From: an uncultured bacterium
GTDB taxonomy: Bacteria; Verrucomicrobiota; Kiritimatiellia; CAIKKV01; CAITUY01
Assembly (NCBI GenBank): GCA_903895695.1
Contig: CAITUY010000085.1
Coordinates: forward strand, 25,052 to 89,051
Direction: 5' to 3'
DNA length: 64,000 bases
Part shown: one piece after another, positions 8,440-63,441 of the stretch
Numbering within the stretch: the first letter of the stretch is position 1
Layout of the letters: each line of letters opens with the position of its first letter
The notes under the pieces: generated by a model
Told to the model about the DNA's origin: nothing
The model's input: the letters and a program-made list of their open reading frames with translations, nothing else
Databases searched by the model: none
Translations under genes and position numbers: made by a program

Positions 8440-9096
8440 TCAGAAGAAGACATCGCACGCCGGCAGGGCCTTGCGGATGCGATTCTTCTCCGCCTCGGGC
8501 AGCGGGTTGCCCGTGAGATACAGTCGCTTCAGGTTCTTCGTCCAGCCACTCATGTCGGCCGGCAGGTCTGTCAACTGATTGCTGTTCAGGCGCAACCATT
8601 TGAGCGACGCCAGTCGGCCCAGTTCCGGCGGCAGGGACGTTAATTTGTTCCGGTCGAGGTTCAAGTAGGTCAGTTTCGGTAAGTCGCCCAGGCTGGCTGG
8701 AACGGCGACGAGCGCATTGTCGTTGAGATAGAGGGCCGTCAGCGCGGGTAGGCGGCCGAGCGCAGGTGGCAGGTTGGTCAGCCCGGTCTGGCCCAGGTCC
8801 AACCAGCAAATCTTCGGGAGGGCCGCGATGCCGTCCGGCACGGTGCCGATGGCGTTCTTCCGCAGGCTGAGCCGTTCCAGGTTGGTGGCCGCAAGAAGCG
8901 GCTCCGGGAATCCCCGTAGGCTGTGATCGCAGAGGTCGACGTTGCGGACGATCGCAATTTTCTTGATAGCGTCGTCCAGCGTGGTCACCTTCTCGCCGAC
9001 ATCGGGCTTCTTCCAGAACTGGTCCGACGGTGAGCAGCCACTGACGAGCAGGGCTGCAAGTACCGTCCAAAGCCATCGTTTTGTGGAGTTATTCAT
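8440..9096 (-). CDS. Leucine-rich-repeat lipoprotein
   Basis: MNNSTKRWLWTVLAALLVSGCS lipobox, then ~8 LRRs (LxxLxLxxNxLtxLP). Start at MNN (9096) rather than the long upstream ORF extension. Confidence 0.75.
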   Translation of the reverse strand: MNNSTKRWLWTVLAALLVSGCSPSDQFWKKPDVGEKVTTLDDAIKKIAIVRNVDLCDHSLRGFPEPLLAATNLERLSLRKNAIGTVPDGIAALPKICWLDLGQTGLTNLPPALGRLPALTALYLNDNALVAVPASLGDLPKLTYLNLDRNKLTSLPPELGRLASLKWLRLNSNQLTDLPADMSGWTKNLKRLYLTGNPLPEAEKNRIRKALPACDVFF

Positions 9097-9131
9097 CGAA
9101 TTGGGATAGGGGTTGAGCGGAATATGCTTCG

Positions 9132-9779
9132 TCAACCTGCCTGAACCTTCTTCTGCCGCTGCCGCCAGGCATACACCATGATCATCGCCACGCAACTGAC
9201 CGCAGCAATATAAGCCGCAAGTTTGCCGTACGTCATGTACATTGCGTTCAATTGTTCCGTCGTCTTTCCCGCGCTTTCTTTTCCTATGCAATAGCCGATG
9301 ACGGTCAGAATCGAGCACCAGATTGCCGAGCCGGCGGCGGTGTAGGCCATGAATCGCGCCAGGCTCATCTTCGCGAGACCCGCCGGGAATGAAATCAGAT
9401 GTCGCACGCCGAAAATCAAACGGCCCGTGAATGTGCCGATTTCGCCGTGACGCAGAAAGAATCTTTCCATTTTTTCGAACTTATGTGGCGGGCAGAGAAA
9501 GTATTTGCCAAATTTGGTGAAGAACGGGCGGCCGAGAAAGAAGGCGACGCCATAGTTGATTCCCGCGCCGACCATGCAGCCGAGCGTGCCGACGATGACC
9601 GCCAGCGTTCCGCTCATCTGGCCCATCGTTGCCGCGGCATAACCCGCTGGCGGCATTACCAGTTCGCTCGGCACCGGCACAATCGTGCTCTCCAGCGTCA
9701 TCAAAACGAAGATGCCGGGATAGCCCCAGTTGTTTATCAAATGGACCAGATACTGAATCGCTTCGTGAACATGCTGCAT
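9132..9779 (-). CDS. dedA: DedA/SNARE-associated (TVP38/TMEM64) family membrane protein
   Basis: YPGIFVLMTLESTIVPVPSE...FFLGRPFFTKFGKYF...GRLIFGVRHLISFPAG; start at MQHVHEAIQYL. Confidence 0.75.
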   Translation of the reverse strand: MQHVHEAIQYLVHLINNWGYPGIFVLMTLESTIVPVPSELVMPPAGYAAATMGQMSGTLAVIVGTLGCMVGAGINYGVAFFLGRPFFTKFGKYFLCPPHKFEKMERFFLRHGEIGTFTGRLIFGVRHLISFPAGLAKMSLARFMAYTAAGSAIWCSILTVIGYCIGKESAGKTTEQLNAMYMTYGKLAAYIAAVSCVAMIMVYAWRQRQKKVQAG

Positions 9780-10052
9780 GGTGTCGCTCCAAAGGCGCAC
9801 GGTTTTGCCACATCCTAAAGGAGGCGGCAAGCCTCGAATGGGCTGGTGATGCCAGTTGGCGGTGTGGCGAGCGGGCACCGTCACGGTTGTGGCCAGCCGG
9901 TGTGCGAGGGCATGCGCCGTGCGCCGCCGAGAATAGCGTTCCCAGACGGGCCCGTTTCCAATACTGTTCTTGCGGACAGAGTGATCGTAGGCTTCCGGGT
10001 TGCTGAGTAATAGATGGCTGCCCCGGCGAATTCCTTTTGGAGGATAGTTCCA

Positions 10053-10712
10053 ATGTCAGATGACAAGCTCGAGAGTGACGGCGCCGAGAAGGAGACCGTG
10101 GCGCGTTTCGTGAGATCCAGATTGATCTCCGGCTTGTTCGTGTTGGTCCCAGTCTGGGTCACGATTGTCGTGATCGGCGCGGCCTTCGGCGCCATGTCGT
10201 CCCTACTGGCGCCCCTCGTCCGCATGGCGCCGTGGACCCTGTCGCCGTTGGCGGAGCGGGCGATTTCGGTCGTGGCGTTCGTGTTGCTGGTGTTTCTGTG
10301 CGGCGCCGTGGCGAGCCGCATGCTGGGGCGCCGCCTGCTGGCATGGGGCGAGTCGCTTATCCTGCGCGTCCCCCTGGTGAAGAGCATCTATTCGGCCTCC
10401 AAGCAGGTGGTGGATGCCATCTCGCTGACCAAACAGGCGGCGTTCAAGTCGGTGGTGCTGGTGGAGTACCCGCGGCCCGGCCTGAAAGCCATCGCCTTCG
10501 TGACAGGCGTCTCGTCGGACGCGGCCGGCCGGCGCTGGTGTCGGGTATTCATACCCGCGGCGCCTCCGACCTCGGGGTTCCTGGAACTCATTCCCATCGA
10601 GGACGTGGAGGCCACCGACATGAGCGTGGAGCAGGGCCTCAAGATGGTCGTTTCCGGCGGGTTCATTGCGCCGGACCGCATTGCCACGCATCCGTTCAGG
10701 GAAGAGACCTGA
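10053..10712 (+). CDS. DUF502-family membrane protein
   Basis: GGAGGATAG RBS then ATG 10053; LISGLFVLVPVWVTIVV TM, LILRVPLVKSIYSASKQVVDAI..FKSVVLVEYPRPG..GFLELIPIEDV characteristic of DUF502. Confidence 0.7.
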   Translation: MSDDKLESDGAEKETVARFVRSRLISGLFVLVPVWVTIVVIGAAFGAMSSLLAPLVRMAPWTLSPLAERAISVVAFVLLVFLCGAVASRMLGRRLLAWGESLILRVPLVKSIYSASKQVVDAISLTKQAAFKSVVLVEYPRPGLKAIAFVTGVSSDAAGRRWCRVFIPAAPPTSGFLELIPIEDVEATDMSVEQGLKMVVSGGFIAPDRIATHPFREET

Positions 10713-12149: not shown

Positions 12150-13369
12150 CTACTCGTGGCGAAGGCTCTCGATGGGGCTGAGGCGGGCCGCCCGCCAAGC
12201 GGGGTAGAACCCGAAGAACACACCCACTCCGGCGGAGAACGACAGGGCGAGAAGGACGGACCCCGGCGAGATCAGCACCGGCCAGTGGTTGACCTGCGCC
12301 ACGGTCAGTGCGGCGCCAATGCCCAGCACAATGCCCAGGATGCCCCCGGCGCCGGCCAGCGCGACCGCTTCGACCAGGAACTGCAGCAGGATGTCGCGGC
12401 GACGGGCGCCCACCGCCATGCGCAGACCGATTTCGCGCGTCCGTTCCGTCACGGACACCAACATGATGTTCATGATGCCGATGCCGCCCACCACGAGCGA
12501 TATCGAGGCGATGACGGCCAACAACACCGTCATCAGGCTGGAAACCTTTGTGATCGTCTGGGTGATCTCGGTCATGTCGATGACCGTAAAATCGTCCTCG
12601 GCTCCCGGCGCCAGGCGATGACGCTGCCGCAGGATGCCGGCAATGTCTTCACGCGCCTGGGCCAGCGTGTCCATGGACGTGAGGCCGATGAGGAGCTGGT
12701 TGACGTTGTTGAAGGGGGAGTTCTGCAACACGCGTCGCGTAGTCGTCCAAGGGACGAGGATGGTATCGTCCTGGTCCTGCCCGAAGGCCGCGCTGCCTTT
12801 GCGCGTCAGCACGCCGATCACGCGGAACGACATGTTGCGGATACGGACCATCTTGCCGACCGGATCATCGTCGGCAAACAACTGATCGACCACGGTCTGA
12901 CCCAGGATGCAGACGCGTACCCCGGTGTGCATATCGTTTTCAGTGAACGGCTCGCCGGAGGCCAGGTCCCAGCTTCGCACGGGCAGATAACCGGTTCCGA
13001 TGCCCTGAATGGAGGTTGCCCAGTCGTTCTCGCGGTAGACGATTTGGGCACCGGTGCGGACGATGGGGCTCATGGCCGCCACGTAGGGGCAATCCTTGAG
13101 AATCGCATCGCCGTCTTCGGCCGTGAGTGTTTGCTGCGTGCCGGAGCCTCCGCGGAAACCCCCGGTGCGCTGGCTGCCGGGGAATACCATCACCAAGTTG
13201 CTGCCCATGGTGCTGATCTGGTCTTTCATGGATACGGAGGCGCCCTGGCCCACCCCTACGACGGCGATGACGGCCGCGATTCCGATGATGATGCCCAGCG
13301 CCGTCAGCAGGGACCGGCCTTTGTTTCGCTGCAGGGCGCGCATGGCGATCCGGACCGTGACGACGGCAT

Positions 13370-13373
<4 letters not shown>
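12150..13373 (-). CDS. ABC transporter permease, MacB/FtsX family
   Basis: MacB periplasmic domain plus C-terminal FtsX four-TM bundle (GGIGIMNIMLVSVTERTREIGLRMAVGARRRDI). Confidence 0.85.
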
Positions 13374-14035
<662 letters not shown>

Positions 14036-43892: not shown

Positions 43893-44176
43893 GGTGCGTC
43901 GAGCTCCTCTATGGGCCCTGTCCGGAGGGCCTGACTTGGGGCTGAATTGGCCGCTGACAATGGAAGAAACGCAGGGGTCCGTCAAGTGAAGAGCACGGGG
44001 CCCCATTGGGGCGGAAACGGAGGGAGCGGCTCAAGAAGGAAGGCAATGAAACCGTGACGGATTGTCACGCTTTCAAACAGACTAAGGGTAATGGCAAGCT
44101 GCGCTGATCGTTTTTCAACTGTTTTCCGGCTGTCTTCCGGCTTGAGCGACAACGCTAACCGTGGTAAACGTCAATC

Positions 44177-44392
44177 GTGGTAAATACCGACAAATACAGC
44201 AGTAATGCCGCGACAACGGCCGACCTGATGGAAGGCGGCATCGCGTTGATGCGGCAGAACATTCGGCGGCGCAATCCGGTCGCGTCCGAGGCCCAAATCG
44301 ACGCCTTGCTGGTTGCCTGGCTGCACCGCACGGACGACCCCTTTCCCGGCGATACGGCCGGCCAAGTTCGCGTGCGCGAGTGGGTTCCATGA
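44177..44392 (+). CDS. Small protein of unknown function, translationally coupled (ATGA) to the downstream nucleotidyltransferase-fold gene
   Basis: 71-aa ORF; stop overlaps ATG 44389 of next gene. Confidence 0.4.
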   Translation: MVNTDKYSSNAATTADLMEGGIALMRQNIRRRNPVASEAQIDALLVAWLHRTDDPFPGDTAGQVRVREWVP

Positions 44393-44988
44393 ACCGTCTG
44401 GAGTCACTCTTGCGGCAGATTGCCGCTTTGTTCGGCGGACAAGATCCACGTTGGGCCTTGGTGGGCGGGCTGGCGGTTTCCGTGCGCACGGAACCGCGTT
44501 TTACGCGCGACCTGGATCTCGCCATGGCCGTGTCCGACGACCGAGAGGCAGAGGCCTTCATCCATCGGTTGCGTAACGCTGGGTTTCGTGTGCTGGCAAT
44601 AGTGGAACAAGAGGCGGCACATCGTCTGGCGACAGCGCGACTGGCGGTGCCCGAGGACGAACCCCAGGGGCTGATGCTCGACCTCTTGTTTGCCTCATCG
44701 GGAATCGAACAAGAAGTCTGTGCGAATGCGGAATTGATGCAGGTTTTTCCGGGACTTGTCGTGCCGGTTGCACGACTTCACCATCTCATCGTGCTCAAGA
44801 CCTTGGCTCGTGACGACCGTACCCGCCCACAAGACGCTGGCGATCTGCGTCAGTTGATCGCGGCGGCGGCTCCCACCGAGCTGGATGCGGCTCGTGACGC
44901 TGCCCGGCTCATTGAACAACGCGGTTTCAATCGATCGCGCGATTTGGTCGAGGCAGTGTCGAGAGCGTGGCAGGAATTTCGACCGTGA
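44389..44988 (+). CDS. Minimal-nucleotidyltransferase-fold protein (AbiEii/MNT-like)
   Basis: WALVGGLAVSVRTEPRFTRDLDLAM = hG[GS]-x(9-13)-DxD NTase signature. Confidence 0.55.
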   Translation: MNRLESLLRQIAALFGGQDPRWALVGGLAVSVRTEPRFTRDLDLAMAVSDDREAEAFIHRLRNAGFRVLAIVEQEAAHRLATARLAVPEDEPQGLMLDLLFASSGIEQEVCANAELMQVFPGLVVPVARLHHLIVLKTLARDDRTRPQDAGDLRQLIAAAAPTELDAARDAARLIEQRGFNRSRDLVEAVSRAWQEFRP

Positions 44989-45444
44989 TGTCACGCGCGT
45001 GTGGCAACAGAATAGTGACCGTTGCACCGTCTGCTTGACGGTCAGCGGCGTCGCTGGTGTTGCGTGCCCCATCCCTGTGCGGTACCTTCTTGCCATGTCG
45101 CGGCAGGGGGATGTCGCCGAATGGAACTGTCGATGAAACGCATTCTAGTCCTGGCGACCACCATCCTCCCTGGCCCTTGGCGTCTTTGCGCCGCCCCGCC
45201 CGCCATCACGTCGTTTGACAATTCACAGGAGAATCCACGGCATGGAGAACTGCGTTTGCCAACTGGCGGAAGCCATCACACGGATCCGCCTGACGCCTAT
45301 CATCCCTCGCCCGACACCTTACTATGCGTCATCAAACTGTCATAACTTGCGTATTGCCAATGCAACTCATGAGGTTCTTCACGGTCAGTGACGCACCGGC
45401 GGTTTGCCATGCTTGACGGCTAATACAAGGCTCAGGGAGATAGA

Positions 45445-46017
45445 ATGGAAAATGATGTCATCGCCGTAGACAAGAAGATCCGGGCGGAAGGCGATCGTCT
45501 CCTCAATGTTACCGGGCTGGGAGAACTGATTCGAGAATACGCCCCGTTCGCTGTGACCGGGAGTCACACGCTTGAACTGATGGTCTGGCGAGACTTGGAC
45601 ATTGCGATGAACGCCCCCGGAATCTCCATTGATGACTTCTTTGACCTCGGTAAACGCATCACGGCCCTTCTATCCCCCTGGAAGATGTTCTTCACGAACA
45701 ATCGCGACAACAACGGAGGACGATACCCTGTCGGGCTGTATTGGGGCACTCGTCTCGGCGACATCAAGAAGGGGGCATGGAAGCTGGACCTTTGGGCATT
45801 CAGCACTGAAGAGTTCAGGCAGAAGGTGGAGGAGTGCCAGAATCTGAAAGGACGTCTGAATGACGGGAACCGTCTGACAATCTTGACGATCAAGGCGCAG
45901 ATTTGGAACCATCCTAAGTACAGGGACACGATGACAAGCCAAGACATTTACGACGCGGTCCTGGACCACGGGGTTACTTCGCTTGAAGGGTTCTGGCAGT
46001 ACATGAAGTCAAAATGA
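45445..46017 (+). CDS. Nucleotidyltransferase-domain protein in a low-GC (~50%) patch
   Basis: FAVTGSHTLELMVWRDLDIAM (GS...DxD) NTase motif; codon usage and GC clearly atypical for the flanking DNA. Confidence 0.55.
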   Translation: MENDVIAVDKKIRAEGDRLLNVTGLGELIREYAPFAVTGSHTLELMVWRDLDIAMNAPGISIDDFFDLGKRITALLSPWKMFFTNNRDNNGGRYPVGLYWGTRLGDIKKGAWKLDLWAFSTEEFRQKVEECQNLKGRLNDGNRLTILTIKAQIWNHPKYRDTMTSQDIYDAVLDHGVTSLEGFWQYMKSK

Positions 46018-46271
46018 GGAGTCAACCAGCAAGTGCTCGGTACGGTTTCGCCGCCCGAGATTTGCGCCGTTGGGCACTGGAAAGGGCAGTGGGGCCGCAT
46101 CGCAACATCTAACAATTGCCAGTCCGGGCAGCCGACGATGAACAAGGCACAAACCAAACTCCAAATCCGCGACAGCACGGCCGAGTTCCTGATTCCCACC
46201 CGGCGGGCGGGCGAGGACGGGATCGAGGTGCGGGTGGAGCGGGAGACGGGCGGACAGAACGAGGCTAATCC

Positions 46272-47315
46272 ATGAGTGACGATCAATTGCCGAAGTCCGA
46301 GATCATCCTCTATCAGACCGAGGACGGGCGGACGCGGATCCAGTGCCGATTCGAGAACGATACGCTGTGGTTGACGCAGGCGCTCATCGCTGAGTTGTTC
46401 CAGATCGGCGTGAACACGGCCAATTACCACTTGAAGTCTATCTTTGCCGAGGAGGAGCTACAAAAGGAGGCAACTATTCGACGTTATCGAATAGTTCAAA
46501 CCGAGGGTTCTCGGCAAATTGCCCGCGAGGTTGAGCACTACAGCCTGCCCGCCATCCTTGCCGTGGGCTACCGTGTGCGGAGCCATCGCGGCACCCAGTT
46601 CCGGCAGTGGGCGACGGCGCGCTTGAGTGAGTACCTGGTGAAAGGTTTCACCATGGACGACGAGCGGCTCAAGAACCCGCCGGGCAAAGGTCAGAAGGAC
46701 TACTTCGACGAGCAACTGGAGCGCATTCGCGACATCCGTTCCTCGGAGCGGCGTTTCTATCAGAAGGTGCTCGATATTTACGCGACGAGCGTGGACTACA
46801 CGCCGGATACGGCTGTGTCGCAGCAGTTCTTCGCCACGGTGCAGAACAAGATGCATTGGGCAGCGCACGGTCACACGGCGGCGGAGGTGATTCATGAGCG
46901 CGTTGACGCCGGGAAGCCTTTCATGGGTCTGAAAACGACGCGCCCGGGTGGCATCGTGCGGCGGGAGGATGTGTCCATAGCCAAGAACTACCTCGACGCA
47001 ACGGAACTCGGGGTGTTGAACCGCATCGTGAACGCCTATATCGAATTCGCGGAGTTGCAGGCGCTCCGGCGCAAGGTCATGACCATGCGGGACTGGATCG
47101 AGAAGCTGGACGATTTCCTGAAATTGTCGGAGCACGAGTTGTTGAATCACGCAGGCAAGATAACCGCCGAATCCGGCAAGGCAAAAGCGGAACTGGAATA
47201 CGAGCGCTATCGGGCGCTCGTGGATGCGCAGCCGCGCCCGGTCGATGCGGATTTCGAGAAGGCGGCGAAGCAGTTGAAAACGGCTCACGCGGAGACGCGG
47301 AGAACGCGGAGGTAA
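46272..47315 (+). CDS. rhuM: RhuM-family (virulence-associated, KilA-N/ORF6N-like N-terminal domain) protein
   Basis: KSEIILYQTEDGRTRIQCRFENDTLWLTQALIAELFQ N-terminal signature and ~345-aa length typical of RhuM. Confidence 0.7.
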   Translation: MSDDQLPKSEIILYQTEDGRTRIQCRFENDTLWLTQALIAELFQIGVNTANYHLKSIFAEEELQKEATIRRYRIVQTEGSRQIAREVEHYSLPAILAVGYRVRSHRGTQFRQWATARLSEYLVKGFTMDDERLKNPPGKGQKDYFDEQLERIRDIRSSERRFYQKVLDIYATSVDYTPDTAVSQQFFATVQNKMHWAAHGHTAAEVIHERVDAGKPFMGLKTTRPGGIVRREDVSIAKNYLDATELGVLNRIVNAYIEFAELQALRRKVMTMRDWIEKLDDFLKLSEHELLNHAGKITAESGKAKAELEYERYRALVDAQPRPVDADFEKAAKQLKTAHAETRRTRR

Positions 47316-56658: not shown

Positions 56659-56735
56659 CGGGGTGTAGCGCAGACTGGTAGCGCGTTTGGTTCGGGACCA
56701 AAAGGTCGGGGGTTCAAATCCCCCCGCCCCGACCA
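56659..56735 (+). tRNA. tRNA-Pro (anticodon CGG); 3' half serves as attachment site for the downstream integrated element
   Basis: Manual cloverleaf: acceptor CGGGGTG/CGCCCCG, D-arm, anticodon stem TTTGG/CCAAA with loop TTCGGGA (CGG), T-arm GGGGG-TTCAAAT-CCCCC, discriminator A, encoded CCA. Confidence 0.85.
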
Positions 56736-56820: not shown

Positions 56821-56884
56821 TCTGTGGAATTCTGCGAAATCCCTTTCTGTGGTTGCCACAGTTTTTACCACAGTTACCACAGTC
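56821..56884. promoter_or_regulatory. Cluster of CTGTGG / CCACAGT repeats at the left end of the integrated element (candidate integrase arm-type sites)
   Basis: TCTGTGGAATTCTGCGAAATCCCTTTCTGTGGTTGCCACAGTTTTTACCACAGTTACCACAGTC; matching TTGCCACAGTTTTAACCACAGTAGG at 63311-63334 near the other end. Confidence 0.5.
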
Positions 56885-56934
56885 GGCCGGGAAGAAAAAA
56901 CCTGAGTATTGTGCATGTGGTCCAATGCGCTTGC

Positions 56935-57342
56935 TCAGTTTGTGAACATTGCGCGCCACTTGAACCAGGCAAACCAGGAGATCGTGACGCCCAGGAAGCG
57001 CACGCCCGCGCGCACCGACCCCATTCCATACGCGCACTGGGTCCGGTAGAACCGCACGTTCGCATCCCACCCGCCGTTGCCCGTGCCCCAGTCGAAGTCA
57101 TGCCGCAGGCACGGCGGGAAGTAGATCGTCGGCCAGTAGACCTCCGACACCCCGGTGCACCCGTCGCAGTCCGTGAACCAGTCCCACTTGTCGGAGTCCA
57201 GCGCCTCCCGGATTAACGCCTGGATGTCCGCCGGCACGTTCAGCACGTCGAACGACTCGATGATTCGCCGGTACTCGGTCGCCCGGTCCAACCCTTCGCT
57301 CTTACCCTTGCCACACCCCATCACCCCGCAACGCCCGCTCAT
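56935..57342 (-). CDS. Hypothetical Cys/Trp-rich protein (last gene of the caspase-like operon)
   Basis: 136 aa from ATG 57342 (TAA-1nt-ATG junction with upstream gene); aromatic C-terminus ISWFAWFKWRAMFTN; no family recognised. Confidence 0.45.
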   Translation of the reverse strand: MSGRCGVMGCGKGKSEGLDRATEYRRIIESFDVLNVPADIQALIREALDSDKWDWFTDCDGCTGVSEVYWPTIYFPPCLRHDFDWGTGNGGWDANVRFYRTQCAYGMGSVRAGVRFLGVTISWFAWFKWRAMFTN

Positions 57343-57343
57343 A

Positions 57344-57601
57344 TTACCGCCCTTTCGCAATAGCCCACTTGAACAACAGGATCAGTCCCATGACGGCCGC
57401 AGTGAGGACCGTGCCCACGATGATCGAGAGCGCCCAAAGAAGACCGTGCAGAATCTGCTCGTGCCGCTCGATCCGGGTCTGAATCGACAAGGTCCCGTTA
57501 TCGCGGAATAACCGTTTCTCGATGGACTCCAGCTTCTGAAACACGCGCTGGTTGATCTCGCCGCATTGCGCGTGCGTCACGAATTCCCCTGTCTCCTTCA
57601 T
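57344..57601 (-). CDS. Small membrane protein, XhlA/holin-like (N-terminal coiled-coil, single C-terminal TM)
   Basis: 85 aa; INQRVFQKLESIEKRLFRDNGTLSIQTRIERHEQILHGLLWALSIIVGTVLTAAVMGLILLF; ATGA overlap with caspase-like gene. Confidence 0.5.
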   Translation of the reverse strand: MKETGEFVTHAQCGEINQRVFQKLESIEKRLFRDNGTLSIQTRIERHEQILHGLLWALSIIVGTVLTAAVMGLILLFKWAIAKGR

Positions 57602-58395
57602 TCCAACGCCCTGCCGTTTCTGAACGCCTCCAGGACCGTGCCGTATTCCTCATAGACCGGCACTTGAGTCCCCGGCATCAACGCGGCCGCGTTCGTGAAC
57701 CAGGACCGATACGTTCCCGTCTCGCTCCAGGCGTCAACCAGTGCCGTCGTGAATACGCCGCCTTGCGGCCCGCCGAGACTGCTCTGCCCGTCCGCACATC
57801 CGCCGTAGTGAATCAGCGCTGCATGGAACGGGGCAGGGAGGGCCTTCTTGTAGGACCGGCGCCGATAGTTCGTGCCTGAGTTGCAGGTATCGGTCACGAA
57901 GAAGACCCGCACGCCGACCGGAACCTCGGCCAGCACCGTGGAAAGGTAGGTGTCCGTCATCTGGCCATCCCAAAGGCAAAGCGTCTCGGAAAGACCATCC
58001 GCCTCCGTGGTGTCCCCATCGTCTACCTGGCCGCCGTGCCCCGATACGTACACCACGAGCAGGTCACCGGCCTTCATGCCCGCGCATGCCGCCCGAGCGG
58101 CCGCCTCCAGTGCGCCCTTGGTCGCCGCCGCGTTGTGATGCAGCGACACCTGCAGGCCCCGCTCGCGGCAGAGCATTGCGAATGTATCCGCATCCACGTC
58201 ACACCCGGGGCACGCGCCCGCCCACCCGCCGTATGCCGCCGGATCCACGGCCGTCAACCCGGCGACCACCGCCCGGCGCACTACGCCGGTCACCGACGTG
58301 AAGTCGTTCGTACAGTCGGTCACCGGTTGTGGCGCCGGCTGGCTCGCGCAACCCGCCATCAAAACACCCGCCAGAACGATCAAGATACCTCGCAT
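57598..58395 (-). CDS. Peptidase C14 caspase/metacaspase-like (orthocaspase) lipoprotein
   Basis: Lipobox LAGVLMAGC|AS; p20-like catalytic dyad in metacaspase context: LLVVYVSGHGGQVDDGDTTEADGLSETLCLWDGQ...VRVFFVTDTCNSGT (His in SGHG, Cys in DxCxSG). Confidence 0.7.
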   Translation of the reverse strand: MRGILIVLAGVLMAGCASQPAPQPVTDCTNDFTSVTGVVRRAVVAGLTAVDPAAYGGWAGACPGCDVDADTFAMLCRERGLQVSLHHNAAATKGALEAAARAACAGMKAGDLLVVYVSGHGGQVDDGDTTEADGLSETLCLWDGQMTDTYLSTVLAEVPVGVRVFFVTDTCNSGTNYRRRSYKKALPAPFHAALIHYGGCADGQSSLGGPQGGVFTTALVDAWSETGTYRSWFTNAAALMPGTQVPVYEEYGTVLEAFRNGRALE

Positions 58396-58496: not shown

Positions 58497-59018
58497 ATGA
58501 CCACAGCGATGTGGTACTCGGACGGCAGTGTCAATGCCTGCCGTGTCAGCATTCCCGATCATGCCGGCCGCGAGGGCTATCTCCGGGAATACCCATCGCA
58601 CGCCGAAGTCAAAGCGCACATGCAAACGCGTCTGCAGCAAGGCGTGGCGTGTCCAACCCATGCCGGTGCGGTGACGACCACCCTCCCGTCCCGCGCTGCC
58701 ATGCGACAGTGCATGTCAACCTGTCCTGCAGGCACATGCACGACAAGAACTGCCGTTAAGTGCTATGCGCGCCGGCATGCCGGCGAACTCGAAGCCCGAT
58801 TCCAGAGAGCGGTAGTCGAGGGATTCGATGCCCTGTGGCAGTTTGGGGTGGGGGTGGCCTATGCCCTGTGGCCAGAAGCAGGACGGCAGCATGCCGGCCC
58901 GTTTTGTGCCGTCATGGCCATCGCCGGAAGCATGGGCATGTCCGAACGGGACATGCAGGTGCTGAGGGGTAACATGGCCCGACTAAGCGATACCCAGCGA
59001 CAAGGAGGCCCAACGTGA
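58497..59018 (+). CDS. Hypothetical protein (first of a translationally coupled trio on the island); start uncertain
   Basis: ORF ends with AAGGAGG RBS and GTGA overlap into next gene; C-terminal half protein-like, N-terminal half Cys/Thr-rich and possibly not coding. Confidence 0.35.
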   Translation: MTTAMWYSDGSVNACRVSIPDHAGREGYLREYPSHAEVKAHMQTRLQQGVACPTHAGAVTTTLPSRAAMRQCMSTCPAGTCTTRTAVKCYARRHAGELEARFQRAVVEGFDALWQFGVGVAYALWPEAGRQHAGPFCAVMAIAGSMGMSERDMQVLRGNMARLSDTQRQGGPT

Positions 59019-59611
59019 AAGAGGCGAGTATCATCGACGAACAAGCCGCCGATTCGGAAAAAGTGCAGGTCGGTCATCTGAAGGAACACACGGAGACGGA
59101 AAGGCTTGAGGGTGCGGCGGAGCATATCAGCCAGATCAAGCAGCTTCGGCCCGAAGTGTGGTCGGGTCTCACCGAGGCAGGGCGCGAGAGCTGCTTGCGG
59201 CAAGTCGGGCGGAGATTGTCGGAAGCCTATGAGTGTCCTGCCCCGCCGTTTATCGGAAGCCGCCTGGCCGAGGATGATCGCGGCATTACCCTTGGCGAGC
59301 ACTCCGATGACGAGTACATCACGAAAGTGAACCACAAGGTGCTCAACATGAACGAGTCTGGCCGGGCACTGGAGACATACAGCCACGAATTCCGCCACGC
59401 CTATCAGCACGAGATGGCGACTCGGTACAACTCAGCATTTAGACACCTGTGCCACGATGAAACCAAGGCCGCCCAGTGGGCCGAGAACCTGAAGCCCGGA
59501 AGCTACGTCTCCTTTGACGTGAACGCGGAGGGCTATGAGGCGCAGCCGGTCGAGAAGGATGCACGGGACTTCGCTGCCAGACTCAAGGAGGAGGTGCGGA
59601 GAAGGCAATGA
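59015..59611 (+). CDS. Hypothetical protein with HExxH zincin-like motif
   Basis: GTG start after AAGGAGG; acidic N-terminus; SHEFRHAYQHE motif. Confidence 0.45.
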   Translation: MKEASIIDEQAADSEKVQVGHLKEHTETERLEGAAEHISQIKQLRPEVWSGLTEAGRESCLRQVGRRLSEAYECPAPPFIGSRLAEDDRGITLGEHSDDEYITKVNHKVLNMNESGRALETYSHEFRHAYQHEMATRYNSAFRHLCHDETKAAQWAENLKPGSYVSFDVNAEGYEAQPVEKDARDFAARLKEEVRRRQ

Positions 59612-60062: not shown

Positions 60063-61043
60063 TCATCTGAGCGCGTTAATTTCGGCTTCGAGTGCCTGCA
60101 ATCCGGCCACAATGACGCCGAAATCGGGCCGCTCGCCGAAGATCATGGACTGCATCTGTTCGTAATCGCGCGCTAACACCTTCATCACATGCTCAGGCGG
60201 CACGAGTTTCATCGTTCCCGGCGTCGCCAGGTCGTACCGAGCCCACCCGCGGTGATAGAACTTGTCCTTGAAGGCCGCCACCGCATGAAGCAGATCCAGG
60301 TCGGCGAACGCGTCACCCTTCACCCGGGTCTGCGCCATGCGATGCACGTCGTAGTAATGCCGCGAGTAACCCGCCGGCTGGACGCTTCCGGCGGGACGGT
60401 TGGCCTCATGATGCAGGATCGTGATCTTCTCCCAAAACGTTCGTTCCGCCTTGATGGCCTGTACCCGGCACGTCGGCCGCCGGAACACCGCAGGCAACGC
60501 CTCGGCCGAATAGGGCCGGATGTCATACTCCGCGTTCGGGATCCACGCAGCCAGTGGCCCCACTTCGAGTTGGATCTCCGGCCTCAGGTAGTCGCTGCCG
60601 AATGCCGCCGGATACTTGACCTTCACAATCTCGGGGTTGTCCCCGATCGTCGCCTCGCACGTGTCCCCTACGAGCCGGCGGACCTCAGGCAGGAAGGTCT
60701 CCCGCAGATACACGTGCGCCTGCCGCAGCAGTTCCTTGTTGAACACATCCTGTCGACTGACGGATCGCGCGGCCCGCGGATCCTCCTGCGTGATCTCCGT
60801 CCAGTCCAGGATCAGGTCGATGTCTTCGGAGAACCGCTCGATCAGACCAAATACCTTCGATAGGGAAGTGCCGCCTTTGAACAGAATCCTGCGGCCAATG
60901 GTCGCCGAACCGAATAACCGATCCAGCGTCCAGCACACCCAGAAGTCTTTCTCCACGACTTCCGGGGGCATCTTCTTGATCGCAGCGGCCTCGCGCATCA
61001 GATCCGCGCGGTCGGCCGCGCTCCAAGTGGCAACGGCATCCAT
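60063..61043 (-). CDS. abiEii: Type IV toxin-antitoxin nucleotidyltransferase toxin AbiEii/AbiGii family (DUF1814)
   Basis: ILFKGGTSLSKVFGLIERFSEDIDLIL hallmark motif; ~326 aa. Confidence 0.8.
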   Translation of the reverse strand: MDAVATWSAADRADLMREAAAIKKMPPEVVEKDFWVCWTLDRLFGSATIGRRILFKGGTSLSKVFGLIERFSEDIDLILDWTEITQEDPRAARSVSRQDVFNKELLRQAHVYLRETFLPEVRRLVGDTCEATIGDNPEIVKVKYPAAFGSDYLRPEIQLEVGPLAAWIPNAEYDIRPYSAEALPAVFRRPTCRVQAIKAERTFWEKITILHHEANRPAGSVQPAGYSRHYYDVHRMAQTRVKGDAFADLDLLHAVAAFKDKFYHRGWARYDLATPGTMKLVPPEHVMKVLARDYEQMQSMIFGERPDFGVIVAGLQALEAEINALR

Positions 61044-61654
61044 CAGGATTCCTCCCGGCAGATCTTCAGGATCGTGTCACGCACCCAGCCGCTCGCCGTC
61101 GCTGTGTCTTTCAACACCTTGGCCCGGAGCCCGGCGTTCAGGAAACCGCGTAGGGCCCGGATCGTGTCCGCAGTGATCCGGTCTGGCCCGAGTGTCTTCA
61201 ACGCCTGCACCAACAAGGAACTCTCCCGCTGTTTGAAACCGGCCTCTTTCAGCATGGTATGCTCAAACACGAGTTCCTGGCCGCCGACACGATACGTCCG
61301 GTCCGGTCCATCGGAGAGGTACGCGACGCGACCCATGACTTGCGTCGACAGCCCCAGCAGGTTCAACGCAGCCGGCCCGGTTGCCTGAATGCGCCACCCG
61401 AACTTCCGCGCCAACGCGTGCGCCACGCGGTCGATATCGGGACTCAACTCCCGGTCCAATTTCTTGCTGTACCGGGGATAGTCGTAGAGGCCCCGTATGA
61501 CACGGCGGATAGTCCCCCGTGCAAGCAATCGGTGCAGCGCCACATCAACCGCCGTCCGGGTCCCGATCCCGCTAAAATCAGTCTCGGAAAATGCCCAACC
61601 CCTCCCGTTGCCATAGACCCGGCTAACGACCCTGTTTTCAACGGTATTGTGCAT
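61043..61654 (-). CDS. abiEi: AbiEi-family antitoxin / transcriptional regulator
   Basis: ~203 aa, immediately upstream of and overlapping (1 nt) abiEii; size and position typical of AbiEi. Confidence 0.65.
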   Translation of the reverse strand: MHNTVENRVVSRVYGNGRGWAFSETDFSGIGTRTAVDVALHRLLARGTIRRVIRGLYDYPRYSKKLDRELSPDIDRVAHALARKFGWRIQATGPAALNLLGLSTQVMGRVAYLSDGPDRTYRVGGQELVFEHTMLKEAGFKQRESSLLVQALKTLGPDRITADTIRALRGFLNAGLRAKVLKDTATASGWVRDTILKICREES

Positions 61655-61755: not shown

Positions 61756-63246
61756 TCATACCCTCTGCGCTTCCCGTACCACCCGCGAGTCAACCCAGTC
61801 TTTAGCCTGATTGACCAAATCGGCGGCCGTCTTCACTTGCTTCCGCCAACTCGGCTCAGGCACGATGGCTGCATTCTCCGCCAGGGCCGCCTGCAGCAAC
61901 TTCAGCCCTGCTTCCAGCAACTCACCCGGCCCTTGGGCCTCCCCGTACGTCTGACCGTCGTCACGCAGCACCGGCGCCCCTATGTCGGCCGGCTTCTTGC
62001 CTTCCCCCAGCATCAGCGCCGGCATCGCCCCCGTGATCGTCTTCGTAAAGTCATCACGCCCCGGCTTGAAGTAATTCTTGAGCACCACGTCCGCCGCCTT
62101 GTGGCCGGTCACGCGTCGAACCAGTTCCATCGGCACCCCCGCTGCCAGCGCCATGGTGATCCATGTGACCCGGAAACTGTGGAACCCCCGCACGTTCGCA
62201 GGGTGCAGCCCCTTGCCCCCTTCGCGCTCCACATGCACGTCTCCGCGCGTCTTGGTGTCGAGGCGTGCCAGCCCCTTCTTCTCCCGTTCCTTGTTCTTCT
62301 TGTCGATGACCGCTTGGTCGATGAACCCCGCCTTCTTGAACACAACCCCCAACCGCCAGTTCACACCATCGGGGTTATTCTGGTACATGTGCGCCAGTTC
62401 CGGGAACACGTACCCGCTCGCAGCGGCCGTCCGCTTCTCGAGTTCCTCCCGGAGCAACGCCAATAACGGGATTTCAACAGTCTCCCCGGTCTTGGACGTC
62501 TTCACCCGGATGTAGTTGTTCTTGAGGTCAACCGATTCCCACTTCAACAGGCAGGCATCCCCGCGCCGCATGGCCGTGCAGACGCCCACCACGACCAACG
62601 GTCGCATGAGTTCGTCATTCATCGCGGCATTCAGGATGATCCTCAGTTCCTCGGCGCTGAACGGCTTGCGGTGGATCGTATCCCGGTCCTTCGTCACGAT
62701 CCTGCCAAAGGGGTTCGTCAGCATGCCGGCGTCCTCGCGCAGGTGTTCGAAGGCGCCGCGCAGCAGGATCAGTTCCGAATTGAACGTCTTTGGGCTGATC
62801 TTGCGGTCATCCTCATGACGCATGAACGCTTCCGCCACCTTCTTGTCGACGGCCGCCATTTCCTTCACGCGCGGGAACTTGTCCTTTACGAAGTCCTGTA
62901 GGCGTTCAAACGTCCGCTCCGCCCACTTCACGTAGTGCTTCTTCGGTTGGCGTTTCCGCGGGATCTTCTTCCAGGCATCGTTCAGGTGGAGCAGGGGAAT
63001 ACTGCCGATCCGGTGCCCGAACTTCACCCTGTGGATCTCTTGCACCAGATCCTCCGGCCGCTTCTGCTGGTCGGAGTCCGCCACGACCTTTTCGAACGCC
63101 GTGAGCGCTGCTTGCCGGGTCACCTCGAAAGCCGGCTCGCCCGGTTTACCCACCGCCTCGACATTCAGGCGAGCGAAGTGCCGTTTCCCGTCCCGCATCC
63201 ACCGTCCGTACCAATTTTTACTGCCCGGCTTGAGTTCAATCCCCAT
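61756..63246 (-). CDS. int: Tyrosine site-specific recombinase / phage-type integrase
   Basis: C-terminal catalytic domain with R...HSFRVTWITMALAAGV...RVTGHKAADVVLKNY (R-H-R-Y tetrad); N-terminal SAM-like/arm-binding domains. Confidence 0.85.
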   Translation of the reverse strand: MGIELKPGSKNWYGRWMRDGKRHFARLNVEAVGKPGEPAFEVTRQAALTAFEKVVADSDQQKRPEDLVQEIHRVKFGHRIGSIPLLHLNDAWKKIPRKRQPKKHYVKWAERTFERLQDFVKDKFPRVKEMAAVDKKVAEAFMRHEDDRKISPKTFNSELILLRGAFEHLREDAGMLTNPFGRIVTKDRDTIHRKPFSAEELRIILNAAMNDELMRPLVVVGVCTAMRRGDACLLKWESVDLKNNYIRVKTSKTGETVEIPLLALLREELEKRTAAASGYVFPELAHMYQNNPDGVNWRLGVVFKKAGFIDQAVIDKKNKEREKKGLARLDTKTRGDVHVEREGGKGLHPANVRGFHSFRVTWITMALAAGVPMELVRRVTGHKAADVVLKNYFKPGRDDFTKTITGAMPALMLGEGKKPADIGAPVLRDDGQTYGEAQGPGELLEAGLKLLQAALAENAAIVPEPSWRKQVKTAADLVNQAKDWVDSRVVREAQRV

Positions 63247-63398
63247 ACGCGCCTCCCGGTTTAACCCTGTGCAATTCCTTTCAATCCGGCGACCTAAGTC
63301 ACCTACGAAATTGCCACAGTTTTAACCACAGTAGGCCAAAAAATCAACTCAAGAAGCCAGTAATGTCGGCAATCATTGGCAAAAACAGCAATTTCCGA

Positions 63399-63441
63399 TT
63401 TGGTTCGGGACCAAAAGGTCGGGGGTTCAAATCCCCGACCA
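63399..63441 (+). repeat. attR: 38-nt exact (43 with GACCA) direct repeat of the tRNA-Pro anticodon/T-arm
   Basis: Identical to 56686-56723 of the tRNA gene; the upstream half of the tRNA is absent here. Confidence 0.85.

Follow-up and report, generated by a model that had tools for sequence, protein, structure and literature searches.

The window analysed here is a 64,000-nucleotide (nt) stretch of contig CAITUY010000085.1 from an uncultured Kiritimatiellia bacterium, and it carries on its minus strand three closely packed genes, here called A, B and C (Table 1). A first-pass annotation of the same DNA had described them as three overlapping genes and proposed that they form a caspase-activated, gasdermin-like abortive-infection cassette or, alternatively, a module for prophage lysis that employs a C14 peptidase. 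The analysis described below leads us to the reading, which we hold with a probability of about one half, that A-B-C forms the last late-gene cassette in phage-like integrative elements which make capsids and reside in Kiritimatiellia and other bacteria of the Planctomycetes-Verrucomicrobia-Chlamydiae (PVC) group, and that it serves as a non-canonical envelope-disruption (lysis or release) module.

The genes are indeed all on the minus strand and A and B overlap at ATGA, but the stop codon of B and the start codon of C are one base apart (TAA-T-ATG) and do not overlap. A, B and C are translationally coupled. The start of C was placed at the ATG that gives 135 residues, not the 136 annotated previously, and this is supported by the homologues of C, which begin with MSGRCG. 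Each of the three genes has at least 130 close homologues, and the pairwise ratio of nonsynonymous to synonymous substitution rates (dN/dS) against four orthologous cassettes ranged from 0.009 to 0.33 over A, B and C (0.09-0.17 for A and 0.009-0.18 for B). Because of these homologue counts and the low dN/dS, we regard all three as real genes under purifying selection. A scan of the operon region for sigma-70 promoters and terminators gave nothing usable, as is expected because the organism belongs to the PVC group.

Table 1. Features of the A-B-C cassette and of the island that carries it, in window coordinates (aa, amino acids; ORF, open reading frame; PLA2, phospholipase A2; TM, transmembrane).
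Feature	Position	Strand	Description	Basis
Gene A	57598..58395	-	265-aa predicted exported lipoprotein, Peptidase_C14 (caspase fold)	ORF, PF00656
Gene B	57344..57601	-	85-aa predicted helical protein, C-terminal TM segment at residues 58-76	ORF
Gene C	56935..57342	-	135-aa predicted divergent DUF1353/TtaP-type PLA2-like protein, no signal peptide	ORF, profile homology
tRNA-Pro(CGG)	56659..56735	+	integration target of the island	ARAGORN
Direct repeat, left copy	56686..56723		exact 38 nt, attachment (att) core within the 3' half of the tRNA	repeat search, 100% identity
Direct repeat, right copy	63399..63436		38 nt, displaced tRNA 3' fragment at the far end of the island	repeat search, sequence read
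Tyrosine integrase	61756..63246	-	496 aa	ORF, tblastn
AbiEii toxin	60063..61043	-	nucleotidyltransferase	Pfam PF08843 5e-38, PADLOC 1e-101
Presumed AbiEi antitoxin	61043..61654	-	203-aa ORF abutting AbiEii	position only
Island ORF	58497..59018	+	173 aa, between A and AbiE	ORF
Island ORF	59015..59611	+	198 aa, HExxH motif (SHEFRHAYQHE), between A and AbiE	ORF
22-nt repeat TTGCCACAGTTTTTACCACAGT	56853..56874		inside the left end; 95% copy at 63311-63332 inside the right end	repeat search

Proteins encoded by the cassette

The product of A matched the Pfam family Peptidase_C14 (PF00656) over residues 54-249 (60.4 bits, cut-off 21.4, E=2.6e-16) and the solved caspase-fold protein GSU0716 of Geobacter (PDB 3bij, E=5e-37), and from its homology to the latter it is predicted to adopt the caspase-hemoglobinase fold. 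The putative catalytic dyad, His120 (VSGHGG) and Cys171 (DTCNSG), is intact and aligns with the dyads of 3bij and of yeast and plant metacaspases, and both residues are invariant, together with a CPGC motif, in an alignment of 24 A homologues. The caspase core that had been read by eye is therefore borne out by profile search, and A is probably a peptidase. Against NCBIfam, there was a weak domain-level match to the 'caspase, EACC1-associated type' (19.6 bits against a cut-off of 140). The signal peptide of A ends in a lipobox (...VLMAGC), and lipobox-type signal peptides were found in nearly all A homologues read, with a few lacking one at the called start (L169 and L180; the prefix L denotes a locus throughout), in agreement with the earlier prediction that the protease is extracytoplasmic.

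B was predicted by AlphaFold2 to be a single helix from residue 10 to 84, with a hydropathy peak of 2.5 over residues 58-76 and, just ahead of this TM segment, the invariant juxtamembrane motif RLFxDNGxxSIQTRxxRHEQ. None of 146 B homologues carries a Pfam domain. B itself and 29 members of its family gave no match in Pfam (E<=1), NCBIfam or PADLOC and no significant match in PHROGs, where the holin family phrog_689 was reached only at E=0.19-0.3 and in four of the 29. The architecture that had earned B the description XhlA/holin-like, a helix with a single TM segment, thus stands, whereas membership in those families does not, and because no XhlA or holin family was matched the resemblance is one of architecture only. 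B represents a new small protein family. A search of the PDB with the B profile returned short matches to designed armadillo repeats, which we judged spurious.

C contains the core motif WDWFxDCDGCTxVSExYWPTxYFPPCLRHDFD and has no signal peptide; its N-terminal 45 residues hold several Arg and Lys. As a single sequence it reached 17.8 bits against the prokaryotic PLA2 family PF09056 (cut-off 29.4, E=0.005) and did not match DUF1353 (PF07087), and a PHROGs scan of A, B and C gave nothing significant. An exhaustive hidden Markov model (HMM) search with the profile of the C family collected 128 representative clusters, and among 70 aligned relatives 30 matched PF07087, with a best E of 5.4e-11, and 6 matched PF09056. 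When the close clade of C was compared by hhalign with 24 distant relatives, six of which match DUF1353, the two aligned at 99.8% and E=3.6e-28. The three top matches of a broad C profile in the PDB were bacterial PLA2s (8k1w, 7ygk and 1faz, E=0.0034-0.024). The AlphaFold2 model of C is all-helical, with a predicted local distance difference test (pLDDT) score of 80.8, and includes the Trp-rich C-terminal helix already noted in the first-pass annotation; in fold searches with this model, PLA2s or DUF1353 proteins ranked first or close to first, with weak scores. Taken together, the profile comparisons predict that C is a divergent member of the DUF1353/TtaP PLA2-like superfamily.

The sole characterised member of DUF1353 is TtaP of the typhoid-toxin islet, a protein with experimentally shown PLA2 activity, no signal peptide and prophage relatives, and the family comprises more than 6000 sequences that are mostly phage-borne (PMC11525133). 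His81-Asp82 of C, which corresponds to H70/D71 of TtaP, is invariant in all 70 aligned relatives, and Cys62 and Cys78 are nearly invariant and align with cysteines of PLA2s. The Cys pair together with the PLA2-type His-Asp suggests that C is active outside the reducing, low-Ca2+ cytoplasm. The core also occurs in another arrangement: in P0303, a protein of 1022 aa, the DGC...HD core of the C profile is matched at 19 separate places, and the protein appears to be a tandem-repeat protein made of PLA2-like core motifs.

Related loci and the place of each gene

Related loci were collected by looking up C homologues on long contigs and by scanning GTDB genomes, which gave about 60 that are non-redundant. 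Nearly all of them come from metagenome-assembled genomes (MAGs) of Kiritimatiellia, Verrucomicrobiota or Lentisphaerae, often with several copies per genome. Scans of IMG/VR with single sequences found one locus for C and none for A, and alignment-based scans were needed there. Among GenBank phages, tblastn with C matched Tenacibaculum phage pT24 only, in a context that is uninformative because all neighbours of the match are hypothetical proteins, and tblastn with P0292, a typical relative of C, gave no match.

A compact operon ends with C in all informative loci, L001-L085 included. C is preceded there by TerL, Portal_Mu, a Mu-like protease, p140, a conserved 314-aa capsid protein, p141 and sometimes variable genes, and it is followed by an integrase or by host genes. 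That this near-universality was an artefact of ascertainment through C was considered and rejected after a reverse test anchored on the capsid gene, in which C was present in 19 of 22 metagenomic loci, each with at least 4.5 kb of downstream sequence. The operons belong to integrative elements of about 10-17 kb that are widespread in Kiritimatiellia/PVC MAGs (L001-L009, L018, L085 and L087-L166) and consist of DUF5681, TerL, Portal_Mu, the Mu-like protease, p140, the 314-aa capsid protein (68-99% identical), p141, secreted cargo and B/C. No tail genes were seen in these elements. The genes behind the capsid gene were considered as tail genes and rejected as such, since every variable gene between p141 and B/C encodes a product with an N-terminal Sec-type signal peptide. 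The proteins encoded behind the capsid gene are thus no part of a tail, and the elements look head-only; they may be capsid-forming satellites.

The secreted genes occupy 6951-9718 in L001, 6894-9669 in L004, 1543-3930 in L010 and 5866-9987 in L085, and many of their products share, right behind the signal, an [AG]GW[IL]xDG-like motif that could serve in sorting or processing. This uniform export of the cargo is what would be expected if B-C transiently permeabilised the envelope and let Sec-exported periplasmic proteins cross the outer membrane, a non-lytic release comparable to holin/endolysin-dependent secretion and to the typhoid-toxin islet, where TtaP is encoded beside the muramidase TtsA. 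TtaP does belong to a toxin-secretion islet of prophage origin (PMC11525133), and a pair of holin and endopeptidase that serves secretion is reported from Serratia (PMC4259817). However, the minimal elements L018, L142, L146 and L060 have a B-like gene and C with zero cargo genes, and TtaP is reported to be dispensable for toxin secretion (PMC11525133). We consider such a release function very unlikely.

Directly upstream of C, wherever the sequence was readable and the small ORF was resolved, lies a gene for a helical single-TM protein of 75-157 aa, and the two genes often overlap or are tightly spaced. These proteins fall into at least four families that seem to be unrelated or distantly related to one another. 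The B family precedes C in about 20 loci and other small TM proteins do so in about 30, comprising the TM90 family (about 25 loci, unrelated to B), a 144-157-aa coiled-coil family with an N-terminal TM segment (L017 and L059) and a 76-aa variant (L018, L142 and L146). At the thresholds used, no small TM ORF was found upstream of C in L054, L056, L057, L065 and L077. The exchange of small TM families in front of C resembles the mosaic pattern typical of holin-lysin pairs, and in its genomic behaviour B is holin-like: it is small, embedded in the membrane, mosaic and encoded directly upstream of a signal-less enzyme. The features by which a holin-type gene is recognised, small size, at least one TM segment and a place next to a putative lytic enzyme in a phage late region, are all found in B. 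In L060, two B-C pairs in opposite orientation (9443-10372 on the plus strand and 12600-13527 on the minus strand) flank an integrase on a single contig, which points to two back-to-back insertions or to a rearrangement.

Within this clade, A stands before B-C only in the window, L010, L019, L081/82 and L083/84, that is, in about 5 non-redundant loci of about 45 with enough upstream sequence, and it is missing from all capsid-anchored loci. Because it is absent from most B-C loci, A is an optional addition in this clade. The conserved core is the B-C pair, and A is a facultative third component. In L001, C is preceded by genes of 230 and 90 aa; comparison with A and B showed that they are not homologous, which indicates that A is no constant partner.

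Outside the clade, homologues of A recur in other phage contexts, repeatedly beside enzymes that would attack lipids. In the Mu-like prophages L012-L016, A occupies the position of the lysis genes of Mu. One of its flanks carries a GHSFG hydrolase, in some cases together with a GDSL lipase, and the other carries two lipoproteins, one large and one small, and a coiled-coil protein with an N-terminal TM segment (weak Rz-like match); the lipoprotein and coiled-coil pair resembles spanins. In L167 and L170, A is grouped with a patatin phospholipase and lipoproteins. In L169 the order is coiled-coil TM protein, A, lipoprotein and canonical DUF1353 (E=5e-11), in L172 it is 2-TM protein, A, lipoprotein and DUF1353, and the L171/174/175/176/179 lineage and L177 have A right beside DUF1353. 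The pairing of a C14 lipoprotein with DUF1353 is thus found in at least four viral lineages outside the clade of the window. A further lipoprotein family with an HExxH motif (HEMAHAL or HEAAHAL, conserved C-terminal WKxWVxxWHP) adjoins the A homologue in L167 (8864-9424) and sits directly upstream of the C homologue in L071 (619-1131; BLASTP E=2e-26 between the two). Homologues of the C14 lipoprotein were also observed in the large, low-GC (33-49%) IMG/VR contigs L173, L178 and L183 (321, 144 and 201 kb), followed by small TM or lipoprotein genes, and the A family is for this reason not confined to PVC phages. The phage-borne C14 peptidases form a coherent lipoprotein clade on viral contigs of 33-67% GC. 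Our literature searches (orthocaspase and prophage, C14 and phage, phospholipase and holin lysis cassette) found no description of a combination of C14 and DUF1353.

The island in the window

The cassette of the window lies at the left, tRNA-Pro end of an island of about 6.7 kb between the 38-nt repeats. The integrase, the tRNA-Pro target, the repeats and the AbiEii match all confirm the mobile island with AbiE that had been proposed. The integrase shares 28-42% identity with those found next to C in related elements (tblastn; L001, L006, L020, L076 and others), and the island is probably a reduced element in which the integrase was kept and AbiE was gained; the head genes are missing. AbiE is a two-gene system of its own that shares the island with the A-B-C operon but lies outside it, AbiEii being 1.7 kb away from A with two opposite-strand ORFs between them. 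The 198-aa ORF of these two gave weak matches to DUF3920 and TIGR04549 at most, neither ORF has a match in the PDB or a counterpart among the related loci, and the ORF next to AbiEii gave no sequence match in the PDB. The 22-nt repeats inside both island ends are candidate arm-type binding sites of the integrase or an excisionase; TGTGGTAA-type repeats are also present at 56850-56885. Elsewhere in the window, GC drops to 0.56-0.60 at 9001-10000 and 44001-47000, against a background of about 0.66, and these stretches may be further foreign segments.

The proposal of a gasdermin-like defence cassette is not supported, and composition, co-occurrence, topology and context all speak against it. Neither A, B nor C matched PADLOC at E<=1 and no gasdermin domain was found with Pfam. 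Most B-C loci have no A, and elsewhere the genes close phage head operons instead of lying in defence islands, so that the reading fails on both counts. Furthermore, A is exported and C has no signal peptide, and the protease and its putative substrate would therefore start in different compartments. A broader version of the idea is that the cassette is an accessory ('moron') cargo of prophages or satellites for envelope modification or for defence, acting in superinfection exclusion or in abortive infection through phospholipid damage, with A trimming surface receptors or activating C. We regard this as rather unlikely. It would explain why the cassette lies at the att-proximal end beside the integrase, a classic hotspot of accessory genes, why the window island keeps it together with AbiE and without virion genes, and why A is variable and encoded amid further secreted cargo that varies as well; the head modules of L167 and L171 are interrupted by the A cluster in the manner of morons. 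Activation of C by A would be compatible with the basic residues in the N-terminal region of C, as group XIV PLA2s are activated by N-terminal processing (PMC11525133). On the other hand, C is near-core (19/22 elements) and not patchy like defence cargo, the cassette genes are closely tied to the late structural operon, in which neighbouring genes overlap or leave little space between them, and the lack of PADLOC matches, the absence of A from most B-C pairs and the location of A in the periplasm while C has no export signal count here as well.

Proposed function and comparison with known systems

The envelope-disruption role that we favour could work as follows. B would act as a holin or membrane adaptor and give C access to the membrane or the periplasm, where the conserved Cys pair of C could be oxidised and Ca2+ would be on hand, and C would then attack the phospholipids of the envelope. 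A, as a caspase-fold lipoprotein peptidase exported by Sec and Lol, would already be in the periplasm and would attack envelope proteins or peptide links. The three together would disrupt the envelope without a recognisable peptidoglycan hydrolase, in keeping with the Pfam scans, which found none in the elements examined. A more specific form of this scheme, a three-part demolition in which the small membrane protein frees the signal-less PLA2-like enzyme and the pre-positioned A cuts peptide links of the envelope or peptidoglycan as a stand-in for the endolysin, or matures C, is in our view doubtful.

The late-operon position, the swappable membrane genes, the recurrence of C14 with DUF1353 and the spanin-like neighbours of A homologues agree much better with the prophage lysis module that the first-pass annotation had offered as its second option than with its first, but no canonical endolysin was found in the elements examined, and for this reason lysis is proposed here conditionally. 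Several observations weigh against it. The genus Kiritimatiella possesses peptidoglycan (PMC5148204), as the host clade does, yet no component is a known peptidoglycan hydrolase; no Pfam muramidase, amidase, transglycosylase or peptidoglycan peptidase was found in A, B, C or the called genes of the elements examined. The absence of a holin family match for B counts in the same direction, as does the fact that C by itself stays below every Pfam gathering score. In the alignment column of TtaP Asp85, Asp is present in 49 of the 70 relatives, and the residue is Asn95 in the C of the window, while its close clade has Asn, Ser or Cys there. The D85A mutation abolishes the activity of TtaP (PMC11525133), and because Asn95 replaces this Asp, C may have weak activity or no catalytic function. 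The A cluster of L167 and of the L171 group sits inside the head module in a moron-like position. Finally, elements that look head-only and have Sec-signal genes behind the capsid gene may be satellites that use the lysis functions of a helper phage, in which case B-C would need another role. The head-only elements and the Asp-to-Asn change in C are our main grounds for caution.

The phage contexts of DUF1353 are also to be considered. In favour of lysis, DUF1353 is found fused to lysozyme, NlpC/P60-type and peptidoglycan-binding domains, and in phage FNU1 a DUF1353 gene lies two genes from an amidase. Fusions to a Caudo_TAP domain occur too. A further point against lysis is that 35 of the 70 C relatives match phrog_1158, the PHROG of the DUF1353 family, which is labelled 'tail assembly chaperone'. 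With the Caudo_TAP fusion, the DUF1353 gene next to a tail-fibre assembly gene in Francisella phage KIRK and the place of C straight after the head genes in the minimal elements, this label would fit a virion or assembly role, in which C is a capsid- or tail-associated entry lipase or a fibre-assembly chaperone and B an unrelated small membrane protein. The label is, however, positional and not experimental, the constant pairing with a membrane protein would be left unexplained, the window island retains C without any virion genes, and the conserved His-Asp motif and Cys pair point to an enzyme and not to a chaperone. We see only a slim chance for this role and retain envelope disruption as the preferred function of the cassette.

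Among known systems, the closest to C is TtaP/DUF1353 (PF07087), a PLA2 class distantly related to the group XIV secreted PLA2s (Streptomyces violaceoruber 1faz/1lwb and Tuber borchii 4aup), to which C is related by profile-level homology. Like TtaP, C is about 125-135 aa long and helical, has no signal peptide and has prophage relatives, and it shows the DG[CA][ST]...C/x..HD core with the invariant His-Asp. Unlike TtaP, it retains the Cys pair aligned with cysteines of the secreted PLA2s, stays below the Pfam thresholds of both families, carries Asn, Ser or Cys in its clade in place of the distal Asp (D85), and adds a Cys-rich N-terminus, the Trp-rich C-terminal helix and a paired small membrane protein; its PLA2 activity is a prediction. 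TtaP has biochemical activity but no known biological role. The loci described here give DUF1353 a reproducible genomic syntax, with a small membrane protein directly upstream, a place at the end of the late operon and, as a repeated partner, an exported C14 lipoprotein or other lipases, and this syntax makes a role in lysis or envelope attack directly testable.

Among solved structures, that of GSU0716 (3bij), a Geobacter protein that is uncharacterised, comes closest to A; it matches A over most of the length and has the His/Cys dyad in common, whereas the A family is defined by its lipoprotein signal, the CPGC motif and carriage by phages. In bacterial anti-phage systems that combine a gasdermin with a caspase-like protease, the protease is cytoplasmic. 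The cassette is like these systems in that a Peptidase_C14-type protease is encoded beside small, potentially membrane-damaging proteins, and unlike them in that it has no gasdermin and no PADLOC match, that A is an exported lipoprotein, that the partners mostly occur without a protease and that the context is a phage late operon. The phage-borne clade of C14 lipoproteins clashes with the picture of bacterial caspase homologues as cytoplasmic proteases of cell death and defence. As for B, XhlA of Bacillus PBSX (PF10779) has an N-terminal helical or coiled region and a C-terminal TM segment and belongs to a prophage lysis region; B shares the helical region and the C-terminal TM segment, but neither it nor the 29 family members gave a Pfam match at E<=1.

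Canonical lysis cassettes of phages of Gram-negative bacteria consist of holin, endolysin and the Rz/Rz1 spanins, and some variants contain a lipase, such as LysB of mycobacteriophages. The B-C pair shares with them the place in the late operon and a small membrane protein directly before a signal-less enzyme, and further likenesses are the mosaic membrane-protein gene, the lipoprotein component and the spanin-like neighbours of A homologues in Mu-like prophages. The differences are that no peptidoglycan hydrolase domain is present in the elements examined, where a peptidase of caspase fold and a PLA2-like protein are the putative enzymes instead, and that B has a C-terminal TM segment and no holin family match. 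For PVC hosts we found no phage lysis system described in the literature, and the module is a concrete candidate; the analysis also reveals integrative elements, apparently head-only, that form a family widespread in Kiritimatiellia. If the three-part demolition were true, it would amount to a new kind of phage lysis machinery and would give phage-borne C14 peptidases and DUF1353 proteins their first assigned role. A and C belong to known superfamilies (C14 and DUF1353/PLA2) and B to a new small one, and their recurring combination as a near-universal terminal module of a Kiritimatiellia element family would be a new form of phage lysis-type cassette.

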